Below, in pieces: positions 2,686 to 61,615 of a stretch of DNA of 64,000 nt. Each line of letters begins with the position of its first letter. Position 1 is the stretch's first letter. The stretch is from an uncultured Acidimicrobiaceae bacterium. GTDB lineage: Bacteria; Actinomycetota; Acidimicrobiia; Spongiisociales; ZC4RG35. Position numbers and translations under genes: made by a program. Below the pieces are notes generated by a model that had not been told where the DNA came from, made no database searches, and saw only the letters and a list, made by a program, of their open reading frames with translations. The stretch is from contig CAZZIG010000070.1 in assembly GCA_964653975.1 (NCBI GenBank), forward strand, positions 3,198 to 67,197. Reading direction: 5' to 3'.

Positions 2686-4350
2686 TCAATCCGCCTCGGT
2701 CAGGTCGAGCTCGGTGACGTCGGCGTCATCCCCCAACGCTGCCAGAGCCGAACGCAACGCTTCCCGGGCCCTGGCCGCCGACTCCGGGTCGAGGCTCTTG
2801 GGGTCGAGGGTGAGGTTGAACGCGCCAATCTCGGTCCTGATGGTTTCTCCCAGATCGAAGTCGCTGTACTCCCCCACCACCTCGTAGGTCCGCAACGGAT
2901 GGCTGATGCCCTTCAGGCCCTGCTCACCCAACGGCCGGCAGTAGATGTCGTCTTTGACCAGCATGTAGGTGGAGTGCGAGATCTGGATCTGATCGGGAGC
3001 GGCCGACGACTCGAGACGTGAGGCGGTGTTCACCGCCGCTCCCACGATGGTGTAGTCGAGACGGGCCTCCGACCCGAAGTTACCCACGGTGCAGTAGCCC
3101 GTGTTGATCCCCATGCGGGCGTGCATGGGCTCGGGCCCGACCCGATCCTCCCATTGGGCGCGCAACTCCTCGATCCGCCGTCGCATCCGCAGCGCCATCC
3201 GGACACAGGCGAGGGCGTCTTCTTTGCGTCCCCTGGTCTCCGGGTCTCCGAAGAAGATCATGATGCCGTCGCCTATGAACTTGTCGACCGTGCCACCGCA
3301 CCCGTCGGCGATCGACGCCATCTCACTCAGGTACGAGTTGAGGATCTCGCTGATCTGTTCGGCCTCGAGACGGTCGGTGAGGTCGGTGAACCCCTCGATG
3401 TCGGAGAAGAACACCGTGAGCTCCTTGCGGTACGACTGAACCCGCACCTCGGTTCGACCTTCGAAGATGGAGTCGTATACCTGCCTGGAGAGATACTTGG
3501 CCAGTTTCGCCGACAGCGCCTCCAGCTGTTCGTTCTTCTCGTTCAGTGACTTGTTGGCCAGATGTAGGGCATGTTCGGCCACTTTCCGCTCGGTGATGTC
3601 CCGGATGATCCCGCTGTAGAAGCGCTCACCTCCGACATCCCAGGTGGCCAGGGAGAGCTCGATCGGGAACTCCCTGCCGTCCCGGTCGAGGGCGGCCAAT
3701 TCAACCGTCTTGCCGATGACGTGATGCTCGCCACCGGAGCCGACCCGCTCCAGACCTTCGGCATGCGCCCCGCGGAACCTGTCTGGGATGACCGCGTCGA
3801 GAGTCTCTCCGATCATCTCCTCCCTCGTGTATCCGAACATCTCCACGGCCCCCTGGTTCCAGACCACGATCGTGCCCGTGGCGTCGATCGAGATCACCGC
3901 GTCGTTCGCCGACTGGAGGATTGCGTCGAGCCTCTGCTCGGATAAGGAGAGAGCGCGGGTCAGGGCGGTGCGCTCGGTGATGTCACGGATGATGCCGGAG
4001 AAGAATCGGTCATCGCCCTGCAACCAGGTCGCCAATGAGAGTTCGATGGGGAATTCGCTGCCGTCTCTGTGCAAGCCGAACACTTCGACGGTGCGGCCGA
4101 TGATCCGGGTCTCCCCGGTTGCGACCACCCGCTCGAAACCCTCGGTGTGAGCGGCCCGGAACCGCTCCGGCACGAGAGTGGCGAGTCGCTTTCCGACCAT
4201 CTCGTCGTCGCGATAGCCGAACATCGCGGCGGCCGCCGGGTTCGCGGCCACGATGATCCCGTTGGCGTCCGCGGTCACGATCGCATCCGCCGCCGTGTTG
4301 AATATCGCGTCGAACGACCCCGCCGAGATCCCACCGTTGCCCGTGCTCAC
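2686..4350 (-). CDS. tandem PAS-domain sensor fused to a class III adenylate/guanylate cyclase
   Basis: Two PAS repeats (…FPIELSLATW…SGIIRDITER… appears twice), then the CHD cyclase motifs FSDIEGFTDLT…KFIGDGIMIFFGDP…GINTGYCTVGNFG. Confidence 0.85.
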   Translation of the reverse strand: MSTGNGGISAGSFDAIFNTAADAIVTADANGIIVAANPAAAAMFGYRDDEMVGKRLATLVPERFRAAHTEGFERVVATGETRIIGRTVEVFGLHRDGSEFPIELSLATWLQGDDRFFSGIIRDITERTALTRALSLSEQRLDAILQSANDAVISIDATGTIVVWNQGAVEMFGYTREEMIGETLDAVIPDRFRGAHAEGLERVGSGGEHHVIGKTVELAALDRDGREFPIELSLATWDVGGERFYSGIIRDITERKVAEHALHLANKSLNEKNEQLEALSAKLAKYLSRQVYDSIFEGRTEVRVQSYRKELTVFFSDIEGFTDLTDRLEAEQISEILNSYLSEMASIADGCGGTVDKFIGDGIMIFFGDPETRGRKEDALACVRMALRMRRRIEELRAQWEDRVGPEPMHARMGINTGYCTVGNFGSEARLDYTIVGAAVNTASRLESSAAPDQIQISHSTYMLVKDDIYCRPLGEQGLKGISHPLRTYEVVGEYSDFDLGETIRTEIGAFNLTLDPKSLDPESAARAREALRSALAALGDDADVTELDLTEAD

Positions 4351-4387
4351 CGAGCCAGGTTACGCCGACGCCCCAAACCCTGCCTGC

Positions 4388-4507
4388 TTTCCTCAGGAAG
4401 TGGGACCCGTATGTGGGTCTCTCCGCCTCGAGAATTTCTCGAGGCGGAGAGACCCACATTTCTCGAGGCGGTACGGCCCGGATACGGGCCGTACTTCCTG
4501 AGGAAAG
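4388..4507. repeat. cluster of nested perfect palindromes (putative structured leader RNA or miniature inverted-repeat element)
   Basis: Outer 15-bp inverted repeat ctttcctcaggaagt (4388-4402) / acttcctgaggaaag (4493-4507). Inside it: a ~45-nt perfect palindrome gtgggtctctccgcctcgagaa|t|ttctcgaggcggagagacccac (4413-4458), a 14-nt direct repeat atttctcgaggcgg (4434-4447 and 4458-4471), and a 10-bp hairpin gtacggcccg-gata-cgggccgtac (4471-4494). Confidence 0.7.
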
Positions 4508-4516
4508 TATCACCAC

Positions 4517-4539
4517 GTTAGTGACTAACATCTGATGTT
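4517..4539. promoter_or_regulatory. two overlapping 13-nt odd palindromes directly abutting the TetR start (putative TetR operators)
   Basis: gttagtGactaac (4517-4529) and aacatcTgatgtt (4527-4539), each a perfect inverted repeat around a central base; the TetR GTG start is at 4540. Confidence 0.55.
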
Positions 4540-5100
4540 GTGAGCCGGAGTGAGGAAACCAGACGGCGTCTCCAGGAGGAGGCGATCAGATTGTTCACGA
4601 CGCGGGGGTTCGACGACGTCACCGTCGAAGAGGTGGCCAGGGCCGCCGGGGTATCGCACATGACCTTCTTCCGCAACTTCCCCACCAAGGAGGCAGTTGT
4701 GCTCGACGACCCTTACGACCCCGTCCTCGGAGCCGCCGTGGGCGCCCAGGACGACTCTCTTCCCCCGCTGGAGAGAGTGAGGCGCGGTGTGCTCGAGGCG
4801 TGGGAGGGGGTCGAAGAGCCTGGTGACGAGATGACCCGCGCCCGCATCGAACTGGCCGCGACTCACCCAGGGTTGCGAGCCAGGGTGTGGGAGAACAACC
4901 GGATCACCGAGCAGGTCATCGTCGACGCACTCACGACGAGTGGAGTGTCCGCACTGGACGCGCGAATCGCGGCAGGGGCGGCACTCGGGGCGCTCACCGC
5001 CGCCCTCTTCGACTGGGCCGACAACCCCACGGGAGACTCCCTCGGCGACCGGGTGCGCCGGGCGATGCACCTGCTCGCACCGGTCGGGGCCAGTCGATGA
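4540..5100 (+). CDS. TetR/AcrR family transcriptional regulator
   Basis: N-terminal HTH RRRLQEEAIRLFTTRGFDDVTVEEVARAAGVSHMTFFRNF; stop overlaps the start of the downstream ABC ATPase (ATGA). Confidence 0.85.
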   Translation: MSRSEETRRRLQEEAIRLFTTRGFDDVTVEEVARAAGVSHMTFFRNFPTKEAVVLDDPYDPVLGAAVGAQDDSLPPLERVRRGVLEAWEGVEEPGDEMTRARIELAATHPGLRARVWENNRITEQVIVDALTTSGVSALDARIAAGAALGALTAALFDWADNPTGDSLGDRVRRAMHLLAPVGASR

Positions 5101-35646: not shown

Positions 35647-36336
35647 ATGGCTCGGCGGAGAGCGCCCGAGATGGTTCCGGTGCTCTCGCGTGGCAAGCAC
35701 CGGAACCCTCGCAAGGGGGCGTGCTTCATGGAGTACGCCTCGTTGCTCGCCGGCGAGCGCTGGACCGACCATCCCCAGTGCAGCCACCCACTTCTGGCTG
35801 CCGTCGCTCGACAGGTCAACGACCACATCTCCGATGGCGCCCGCTCCCGTCTCGTCGGTTTGATCCCCGAAGTCATCGGTCTCAACGGAGACGACCCCCG
35901 GCTCGATGCCGTGATCGCCACTCGATGCGCGGCCACGGCGATACCCGTCGCCGCCGAGCACCGACAGCGAGCACTCGCCGTCGGTCTTCTCGCTTCGCAG
36001 CGGTTCCTCCTCCAAATGGACGGTGAGGATGGCCCAAGCCGTGGCCCCGACCCGATCGGGCTCGCCGGGTCGGCCCTGAAACGCTTCCCCCACGCCGCTC
36101 GCTGGGCAGAGGACTTCGCCATCGACCGTCAGATGACCCCGAAGGCATATCGTCGCCGCTCGGCGCCCGCCATCGTCCGCGTGGCGGTAGCAGGTATCGC
36201 CGAGGCGGCGACCGCCGACCCCGATGCGATGCTCTACGAGCTCCTCGCATCGGTCATCCACGACTGCACCGAATGGCTCCGTCGGGAACCGTCGCCTGCC
36301 TCCCCCTGGGCTCGGCTTCCCACCACCACCGGGTAG
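35647..36336 (+). CDS. hypothetical protein
   Basis: ORF with protein-like composition; no family recognised. Confidence 0.4.
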   Translation: MARRRAPEMVPVLSRGKHRNPRKGACFMEYASLLAGERWTDHPQCSHPLLAAVARQVNDHISDGARSRLVGLIPEVIGLNGDDPRLDAVIATRCAATAIPVAAEHRQRALAVGLLASQRFLLQMDGEDGPSRGPDPIGLAGSALKRFPHAARWAEDFAIDRQMTPKAYRRRSAPAIVRVAVAGIAEAATADPDAMLYELLASVIHDCTEWLRREPSPASPWARLPTTTG

Positions 36337-60532: not shown

Positions 60533-61615
60533 TTGGGTGTATTCGACGTCGTAGCAAAGGAGGGCTATGAGCAGATCCTTTACGGCTACGACGATGTATC
60601 TGGCCTCAAGGCGATTATCGCCATACACAGCACGGCATTGGGTCCCGCTCTAGGCGGGACTCGTTTTTTTCCGTACGAATCCGAGGAGGATGCGCTCCAC
60701 GACGTCCTCCGACTCGCCAAGGGCATGACCTACAAGGCGGCGGCCGCCGGGCTCGACCTCGGTGGTGGGAAAGCGGTGATCATCGGCGACCCGCGTGAGG
60801 ACAAGAGCGAACGTCTCTTCCGCGCCTACGGCCGCATCGTCGACTCGCTGCAAGGCCGCTACATAACCGCCGAGGATGTCGGGACGACCACCAACGACAT
60901 GGACATCGTCCGGAGAGAGACGAGGTGGGCACTGGGGAGTTCCGTGGCGTTGGGTGGATCGGGCGACCCGTCCCCGGTCACGGCGCGCGGGCTCTATGCC
61001 GCCACCCGGGCGGTGGCACAGAAGCTGTGGGGCGACACCGACCTCGCCGGTCGCCGCTTCGCCGTCCAAGGCGTGGGCAAGGTGGGCACGGCGTTCGTGC
61101 AACTACTCGTCGAGCATCGGGCAGAGGTCGTGGTCACCGATGCCTACGAACGCGCCATCGAGTCGGCGGTGGAGACGTATGGGGTCAAGCCCGTCGACCC
61201 CGACGAGATCTACGAGGTCGACTGTGACTTCTTCTCGCCATGTGCACTCGGAGCAGGTTTGAACGAGACGACCATCCCACAGCTGGGCTGTCGGGCCATC
61301 GTAGGCAGTGCCAACAATCAACTGGCCACGGACGAAGACGCCGACCGCCTGGCCGCTCGGGGCATCCTCTACGCCCCGGACTTCGTCGTCAACGCCGGTG
61401 GCTTGATCAACGTCTACGACGAGCTCAACGGGTATTCGAAGACCCGGGCGATGCACCGGGTCGACTCGATCTTCGACGCCACTCTCAAGATCCTCGAGAC
61501 GGCCGAGGAACACGGGATCAACCCGAATCAGGCTGCGTTGAAGGTGGCCGACGACCGCATCAGGGACATTGGCGATCTGCGCAGGTTCCGCCGCAGTGGC
61601 GAGGACAGGAACTGA
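60533..61615 (+). CDS. Glu/Leu/Phe/Val dehydrogenase family: leucine/valine dehydrogenase-like
   Basis: …AIHSTALGPALGGTRFFPYESEEDALHDVLRLAKGMTYKAAAAGLDLGGGKAVIIGDP… (catalytic Lys box) …AVQGVGKVG…. Confidence 0.85.
   Translation: MGVFDVVAKEGYEQILYGYDDVSGLKAIIAIHSTALGPALGGTRFFPYESEEDALHDVLRLAKGMTYKAAAAGLDLGGGKAVIIGDPREDKSERLFRAYGRIVDSLQGRYITAEDVGTTTNDMDIVRRETRWALGSSVALGGSGDPSPVTARGLYAATRAVAQKLWGDTDLAGRRFAVQGVGKVGTAFVQLLVEHRAEVVVTDAYERAIESAVETYGVKPVDPDEIYEVDCDFFSPCALGAGLNETTIPQLGCRAIVGSANNQLATDEDADRLAARGILYAPDFVVNAGGLINVYDELNGYSKTRAMHRVDSIFDATLKILETAEEHGINPNQAALKVADDRIRDIGDLRRFRRSGEDRN

Follow-up and report, generated by a model that had tools for sequence, protein, structure and literature searches.

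The 64-kb window analysed in this work (64,000 nt of contig CAZZIG010000070.1, from an uncultured Acidimicrobiaceae bacterium) carries, between the divergent genes of a PAS-type nucleotidyl cyclase and a TetR-family regulator, a 121-bp unit of nested palindromes (positions 4387-4507). This unit is most probably one copy of a dispersed, non-coding and non-autonomous mobile repeat of ~121 bp, which resembles both the REP doublets forming hairpins (REPINs; REP, repetitive extragenic palindromic) and the MITEs, which are miniature transposable elements with inverted repeats. The original prediction, made from the DNA letters, had noticed the symmetry and offered three readings for it, i.e., a structured 5′ leader of the cyclase mRNA, a small MITE/REP-type repeat, or a binding array for a protein. 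The second of these is borne out, since homologous units of 118-122 bp were found at seven other loci with unrelated flanks, and both filled and empty states were found at two loci. The conspicuous structure would thereby be accounted for without a new regulatory RNA, and the cyclase-TetR control region has been remodelled by an insertion.

Homologous units at unrelated loci

A set of 185,579 representative genomes, to which the source species does not belong, was scanned with a 21-nt degenerate pattern of the unit end, TTCCTSAGGAAGTNNGNCCCG. This gave 37 single matches at about chance level, none of them homologous, and several of these were conserved coding sequence in Eremiobacterota. With the same pattern, full units of 118-122 bp that are 83-91% identical and have mutually unrelated flanks were recovered from metagenome contigs, the source of all the other family copies. 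Full homologous units are present in L080, L095 (= L100), L102, L061, L067 and L086/L050; the unit of L074 has decayed, and that of L058 is a fragment at the end of its contig. The terminal inverted repeats are 15 bp and perfect in the window, and 11-15 bp elsewhere, usually with one A.A or T.T mismatch. Because the same or homologous units are present in independent JGI, ENA and Logan assemblies, the unit is no assembly artefact. BLASTN of the unit against plasmids and against phages gave no match, and a pattern scan of viral contigs gave one chance match only. When the proteins encoded beside the other copies were compared with the window by tblastn, none of those loci was found there. The homologues of these neighbour proteins are labelled Acidimicrobiia (67-81% identity; G+C content 60-66%), which suggests that the host of the family is probably an uncultured Acidimicrobiia lineage. 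Exact look-ups of the two proteins encoded beside the window unit, TetR and the cyclase, and of the cluster to which the cyclase protein belongs returned neither a record nor a name. Miniature mobile repeats are an already known kind of element; no description of this particular family was found in the literature.

Within the window, a covariance model of the family run without filters gave the focal copy (119.9 bits) as the sole significant match, the next one scoring 17.9 bits. This second-best match (35652-35753, plus strand; rough E value 0.013) has at its centre a 15-bp hairpin that lies where two genes meet. Its sequence does not resemble the family, and it was judged to be a generic hairpin and rejected as a family member.

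The unit is an insertion between two divergent promoters

The divergent region was correctly recognized in the original prediction, apart from its length, which is 189 nt (4351-4539) and not 190 nt. The flanking genes and the putative control elements outside the unit are the following.

2686-4350, minus strand: gene for a PAS-PAS-class III nucleotidyl cyclase, followed by pntAA
4540-5100, plus strand: gene for a TetR-family regulator with an MftR-type C-terminal domain, the first gene of a TetR-ABC transporter operon
4357-4362, minus strand: probable cyclase -10 hexamer TAACCT, 6 nt upstream of the GTG at 4350-4348 and outside the unit
4526-4531, plus strand: probable TetR -10 hexamer TAACAT, 6-8 nt upstream of the start in all orthologues
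4517-4529, no strand: 13-nt palindrome GTTAGTGACTAAC, probable TetR operator from its conservation, overlapping the -10 hexamer
4527-4539, no strand: second 13-nt palindrome AACATCTGATGTT, not conserved

Orthologous loci were retrieved through homologues of the cyclase and TetR genes. In L113-L116 (cyclase 88% identical; 83% nucleotide identity) the gene order is the same, only ~77 nt separate the two genes, and the empty site consists of AGGTTA, 34 nt and then GTTAGTGACTAAC; the window minus its 121 bp has 33 nt at this place. In L109-L112, where the cyclase is 96% identical, the nucleotide identity 93% and the divergence at 4-fold sites 17-18%, a remnant of ~80 nt, of the same subtype and at the same place, has lost the central palindrome and carries several 1-nt indels in its arms. 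The unit is intact in L001-L006 and L009 (96% nucleotide identity), which differ from the window at two unpaired positions only, the centre base of the palindrome and GGCGG versus GGCAG. L007 and L008 (TetR 83% identical) have neither the unit nor the cyclase. A second locus, where the unit lies between an M15 peptidase gene and a dnaE-like gene, is filled in several strains and empty in L124. These comparisons showed that the window unit is a clean 121-bp insertion into a ~33-nt spacer between back-to-back promoters. The divergence of the empty sites (78-88% protein identity) is too high for the exact base of the junction to be assigned.

Some further observations concern these loci. The empty sites contain short G+C-rich strings like those of the unit core (CTCCGCC, at ~1700-1730 in L113, and GGGTCTC), and in the empty site of L124 (~3886-3900) the sequence GGGGGTCTCCCCC forms a small hairpin directly after the stop codon. 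With two sites this resemblance is within chance, and it could at most hint at a hairpin or homology target. In L007 (2795-3000) and L008 (451-704) pntAA is directly divergent from TetR; since no PAS-cyclase gene is present there, this gene was gained or lost within the clade. All the Logan contigs of L001-L006 and L009 stop within the palindrome or within its direct repeat, as expected of de Bruijn-graph assembly, and in practical terms the perfect palindrome breaks such assemblies at this locus. That the contigs break at different points may also be due to differences between strains in the unit.

Both -10 hexamers are conserved with or without the unit. TAACCT and its spacing to the cyclase GTG are common to the window, L109 and L113, which have different spacer sequences. 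In all six orthologues the 6-8-nt spacing of TAACAT to the TetR start, which is GTG or ATG, is kept. A scan for E. coli-type sigma-70 promoters and a terminator scan of the region found nothing, and no terminator-like site was detected in 4250-4650; because the promoter scan was empty, the promoter calls are drawn from conservation only. Leaderless mRNAs are common in Actinobacteria, and no Shine-Dalgarno sequence is visible at either start, so that with a -10 hexamer this close the cyclase and TetR mRNAs are likely leaderless. Two overlapping 13-nt palindromes had been proposed as TetR operators, and one of them stands. GTTAGTGACTAAC, which lies upstream of the regulator gene and overlaps its promoter, is invariant in six orthologous loci (window, L001, L009, L109, L113 and L007) and is kept even where the unit or the cyclase is missing, and hence it is a probable operator. 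At the site of AACATCTGATGTT the orthologues read AACATCTCGTAGATG, AACATGAATTCTCATG, AACATCGAGTGATG and AACATCTGGTTGTG, and this palindrome is probably fortuitous. The distance from the putative operator to the cyclase -10 hexamer is ~34 nt in the relatives lacking the insertion and ~155 nt in the window.

These data also bear on the proposal that the cyclase or TetR mRNA has in the unit a structured 5′ leader, or riboswitch-like RNA, specific to this locus. The very stable predicted RNA fold and the position upstream of a signalling gene fit such a role. Nevertheless, the unit lies beyond both -10 hexamers, hence upstream of both putative transcripts, and would not be part of a leader. Furthermore, L113-L116 lack the unit and L109-L112 have it in degraded form only, while the genes and promoters persist in both, and homologous units are found at unrelated loci. 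The unit decays at about the neutral rate in the sister lineage, which argues against a conserved local function. The comparison with Rfam that had been suggested gave no relevant match: with E values up to 10 only microRNA-type hairpins were returned for 4000-5000, at no more than 38.6 bits against gathering scores of 100. The leader proposal is thus largely refuted, and we regard it as barely credible.

Anatomy and conserved fold of the unit

The four structures that had first drawn attention to the unit are all present by reading of the sequence and with a repeat finder, with two corrections. The outer 15-bp repeat is perfect as claimed and begins at 4387 instead of 4388, and the central palindrome, quoted with arms of 22 nt around one base, was quoted too short, as it extends to 24 nt on each side. 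The parts of the unit are as follows.

4387-4507, no strand: complete nested-palindrome repeat unit of 121 bp, delimited as an insertion against the empty-site orthologues and by the family alignment
4387-4401, plus strand: left terminal inverted repeat CTTTCCTCAGGAAGT, including the small palindrome TTCCT-C-AGGAA; positions 1-11 invariant in 9 family copies
4493-4507, plus strand: right terminal inverted repeat ACTTCCTGAGGAAAG (repeat finder and family alignment)
4402-4421, plus strand: left imperfect sub-hairpin GGGACCC / GTATGT / GGGTCTC (sequence reading and arm homology)
4411-4459, no strand: central perfect palindrome of 24+1+24 nt, 4411-4434 / 4436-4459, helix P2 (repeat finder)
4434-4447, plus strand: first copy of the 14-nt direct repeat ATTTCTCGAGGCGG (repeat finder)
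4458-4471, plus strand: second copy of ATTTCTCGAGGCGG (repeat finder)
4471-4494, plus strand: right hairpin P3, GTACGGCCCG-GATA-CGGGCCGTAC, with a 10-bp stem and a 4-nt loop (repeat finder)

The entire left arm (4387-4434) is 81% complementary to the right arm (4460-4507), and there is a sub-hairpin in either arm, the left one (4402-4421) being the diverged counterpart of the right hairpin. The central palindrome shares its outer part with the 3′ half of the left sub-hairpin. The single-stranded unit has two possible folds, i.e., a three-way junction, in which the second copy of the direct repeat (4458-4471) forms the P2/P3 junction, or one long hairpin, in which this copy pairs with 4423-4434. 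The single-stranded DNA fold of 4380-4515 is a three-way junction of -58.2 kcal/mol (shuffled sequences -19.7 ± 2.8; z = -13.9; none of 200 shuffles as good), and the RNA fold of the unit region has z = -12.4 against shuffles. In the 64-kb window the unit is by a wide margin the strongest inverted repeat. The symmetry called unusual in the original prediction is therefore real, and the nested structure is far beyond chance. The only open reading frames across the unit are long alternative-frame ones that overlap the cyclase gene.

The fold was then compared among the copies. With RNAalifold, eight copies share three helices: P1, the stem on the outside; P2, the long hairpin in the centre; and P3, the hairpin on the right. 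In 51 pairs, 96.8% of the cells are paired and 6 pairs have changed on both sides, values that 0-1 of 500 shuffles reach; when partners are slid, 39-50% of the cells are paired and 0-1 two-sided changes are seen. P2 has two pairs with compensatory changes, one position showing G-C, C-G and A-U, and in P3 three window pairs show compensatory changes against GTGGGACCCG/CGGGTCCCAC, the consensus of the family. The central palindrome of each copy is perfect or nearly so, despite the differences between copies. These results showed that the three-way-junction fold is kept by compensatory changes. Pair mismatches do arise, without immediate correction. For example, at unit position ~62-63 a single substitution (GGCGGCCAGACCC versus GGCGGACAGACCC) between L117/L118/L120 and L119 (= L086), which have an identical M15 peptidase, breaks a pair of the central palindrome.

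In most copies of the family P1 contains one mismatch, A.A or T.T, the arms reading GGAAGT and GGTAGT; the outer repeat of the window copy is perfect because GGAAGT is present on both arms. All four combinations of the left-arm modules GGAAGT/GGTAGT and GTACGRCCCGGAT/GTGGGACCCGTAT were seen, so that the arms evidently exchange sequence, by what may be interior inversion or conversion. In addition, the unpaired centre base of the palindrome (4435) is T in the window and A at position 19 of L001, a 96%-identical relative, which is the outcome that inversion of the palindrome would give.

The regularities of the sequence itself raise the alternative of a regulatory module that acts at the DNA level at this locus, either as an array of palindromes for a binding protein or as a cruciform that tunes both promoters in response to the negative supercoiling that divergent transcription generates. 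The palindromes TTCCTSAGGAA at both unit ends are 106 bp apart, or ~10 helical turns, and together with the cores of the three CTCGAG-centred motifs they are invariant in 9 copies. Moreover, a perfect palindrome of 49 bp is well suited to cruciform formation, and the position of the unit is exactly that between the two divergent promoters. However, the unit also occurs behind unrelated genes with no promoter to regulate, some orthologous loci that retain both promoters have no unit or a decaying one, and there is no known candidate for the binding protein. The array had been one of the three early options, and it gained no direct support; the variable positions co-vary to keep pairing and not sequence. 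We therefore consider a local DNA-level module improbable. In a mobile repeat, the invariant ends could be candidate binding sites for a recombinase.

Placement of the copies at gene ends

The seven other loci at which the unit was found are the following.

polA, unit, rpsA: unit behind polA and ahead of rpsA
smpB, unit, tmRNA: unit behind smpB and ahead of the transfer-messenger RNA (tmRNA) gene
M15 peptidase gene, unit, dnaE-like gene: unit behind the first and ahead of the second
HD hydrolase gene, unit, ABC ATPase gene: unit behind the first and ahead of the second
SulP-cNMP transporter gene, unit: unit behind the transporter gene
unnamed gene, unit, ROK gene: unit between convergent genes
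alcohol dehydrogenase gene, decayed unit, gene of an RRM protein: unit behind the first and ahead of the second

At six of these seven loci the unit starts 4-11 nt past a stop codon, and at the smpB locus the stop codon is supplied by the GGTAGT arm of the unit itself. The contig-end fragment of L058 begins ~16 nt past another stop codon. The gap from the unit to the next gene or RNA is 26-75 nt, or else the unit borders directly on another stop codon, that of a convergent gene. Relative to the gene upstream, the unit was found in both orientations. The window copy, between two start codons, is the exception in placement.

Two of these loci deserve a closer description. In L095 the smpB frame enters the unit by 13 nt and ends at the TAG of GGTAGT (regions 4706-4826 and 4330-4680), and the tmRNA gene starts 26 nt past the unit. 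Directly upstream of the dnaE-like gene that follows the unit, a LexA-type SOS box, TCGAACATATGTTCGA (TCGAACGTGTGTTCGG in L117), is followed by TATAGT (~3920-3945 in L124, ~10955-10980 in L123 and ~11030-11055 in L117).

This placement speaks for a different view of the family, in which it is mainly a 3′-end RNA module of use to the host, a terminator-like or exonuclease-blocking stem-loop that has been duplicated and is under selection as RNA, the window copy being misplaced and non-functional. In line with it, the intact copies with their flanks are predicted to fold as very stable RNAs (-84 to -109 kcal/mol), the pairing is preserved by compensatory changes, AUCCUUUCU follows P2 in one orientation, and the SPRITE is a known terminator-like repeat (PMC10969869). 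However, both orientations are used, a proper U-tract is missing from each of them, the terminator scan was empty at the window copy, and this copy, which stands behind no gene, is the most perfectly paired one. Compensatory changes are equally expected of a substrate for single-strand DNA transposition, and the placement after stop codons may also arise because short intergenic regions offer no other neutral spot. Hence, we consider it unlikely, although less so than the DNA-level module, that the family is mainly such a host module. A role as REP-like 3′-end barrier at the usual sites is plausible also for a mobile repeat; that of a classical terminator is unsupported, because the unit has no U-tract.

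Mobility of the unit and points against it

As a mobile repeat, the unit would be copied by a trans-acting enzyme that recognizes its folded ends. Since no target-site duplication was seen, a single-strand, IS200/RAYT-like route (RAYT, REP-associated tyrosine transposase) would be favoured. At its usual site after a stop codon the unit would be transcribed as a very stable 3′ structure. At the window locus its main effect would be architectural, in that it would replace the upstream (-35/UP) DNA of both promoters and would move the TetR operator ~121 bp further away from the cyclase promoter. In its fullest form, this would amount to an undescribed REPIN-like system of Actinomycetota, i.e., a three-way-junction module of DNA or RNA with actively maintained pairing, placed without duplication and guided by structure within ~10 nt of stop codons by a single-strand transposase or recombinase, that doubles as a mobile 3′-end RNA and whose window copy rewires the TetR-controlled divergent promoters. 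We put this extended version forward only tentatively, as a possibility well short of probable.

Several results weigh against the assignment to a mobile repeat. No 2-10-bp direct repeat abuts the ends in any of 8 copies, i.e., there is no target-site duplication, and for this reason the unit is not a classical MITE. No second copy was found in the 64-kb window, either by exact and mismatch pattern searches or with an nhmmer profile hidden Markov model, and three 20-kb flanks of other copies held no extra copy, so that the density looks low for a REPIN. The REPIN/REP class is present in tens to hundreds of copies per genome, and the gene of the cognate RAYT, a Y1 HUH transposase, is flanked by the repeats. 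In the window, where the focal unit is the sole repeat, there is no repeat-flanked RAYT gene, and none of the genes adjoining the other copies encodes a transposase. In addition, the ~96 paired nucleotides of the window copy contain no mismatch, while the divergence at 4-fold sites is ~9% per lineage. If equal rates and one ancestral insertion are assumed, ~8-9 changes are expected under neutrality, and the probability of none is ~2e-4. The perfect pairing is thus not predicted by pure neutrality, and it hints that the fold is under selection, that one arm converts the other, or that the copy was refreshed from a paralogue. A comparison of the unit with synonymous sites between the window and L001 has too few differences to be decisive.

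Comparison with known element classes

Three known classes were rejected for the unit. A riboswitch or another cis-regulatory RNA of Rfam was set aside, as no curated covariance model matched. An intrinsic terminator was set aside as well, because no terminator-like site was present in 4250-4650, the window copy follows no gene, and the other copies have no U-run. The attC sites of integrons are imperfect palindromes of 60-140 bp directly behind an open reading frame, with conserved stem mismatches, and are recombined as folded single strands; the unit, too, is an imperfect palindrome directly behind open reading frames. An attC was nevertheless rejected, because the unit ends read CTTTCC...GGAAAG with no GTTRRRY/RYYYAAC core sites, its neighbours are not cassettes but core housekeeping genes such as polA, rpsA, smpB and dnaE, and neither an integrase nor a cassette array was found. 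In the whole window, Rfam at the gathering score returned nothing but two tRNAs. ARAGORN calls a tRNA-Pyl with anticodon CTA at 60616-60693 (plus strand), where the Rfam tRNA model stays below the gathering score, and this call is probably a false positive.

Among the MITEs of prokaryotes are the Correia (CREE), ERIC/IRU and RUP repeats, and an inversion of the interior has been reported for Correia (PMC10969869), to which the arm-swap variants of our family are akin. Like these elements, which are ~100-200 bp and foldable and can alter promoter regulation, the unit is non-coding (121 bp), has terminal inverted repeats, and is dispersed in intergenic regions, with presence and absence among relatives. 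It differs from them in the missing target-site duplication, in that no parent insertion sequence with matching ends is known (in the window, nothing else matches the terminal repeat), and in lying almost always within ~10 nt of a stop codon. With the SPRITE-type repeats, compared here by features and not by sequence, it shares the character of a small interspersed repeat that resembles a gene-end hairpin, and it differs by the lack of a U-tract, the much larger nested structure and the use of both orientations.

The unit is also close to REPINs. These are REP doublets that fold into hairpins and are moved by tyrosine transposases, the RAYTs (Bertels & Rainey 2011, PMC3116915); the doublets are inverted, show compensatory changes and have alternative long-hairpin and "clover" folds, and they are thought to move as folded single strands via RAYT/IS200-type enzymes (PMC3116915). 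Unlike them, the unit has a direct repeat of 14 nt and, at its centre, an extra perfect palindrome of 49 bp, its ends are exact terminal inverted repeats of 11-15 bp, and the host is actinobacterial and not proteobacterial. As in REPINs, two inverted, REP-like arms form a long hairpin that has an alternative "clover" fold and is kept by compensatory changes, the copies are extragenic and produce no target-site duplication, and remnants are left at orthologous sites. In most copies one arm has GTAG ahead of a G+C-rich hairpin, and the hairpins are sub-terminal, with a conserved stem mismatch. The family is thus a possible actinobacterial counterpart to REPINs, with unusually strict gene-end placement and an evolution that clearly preserves structure, and it would lend itself to the study of how repeats of this kind move and of their possible use by the hosts as 3′-end modules.

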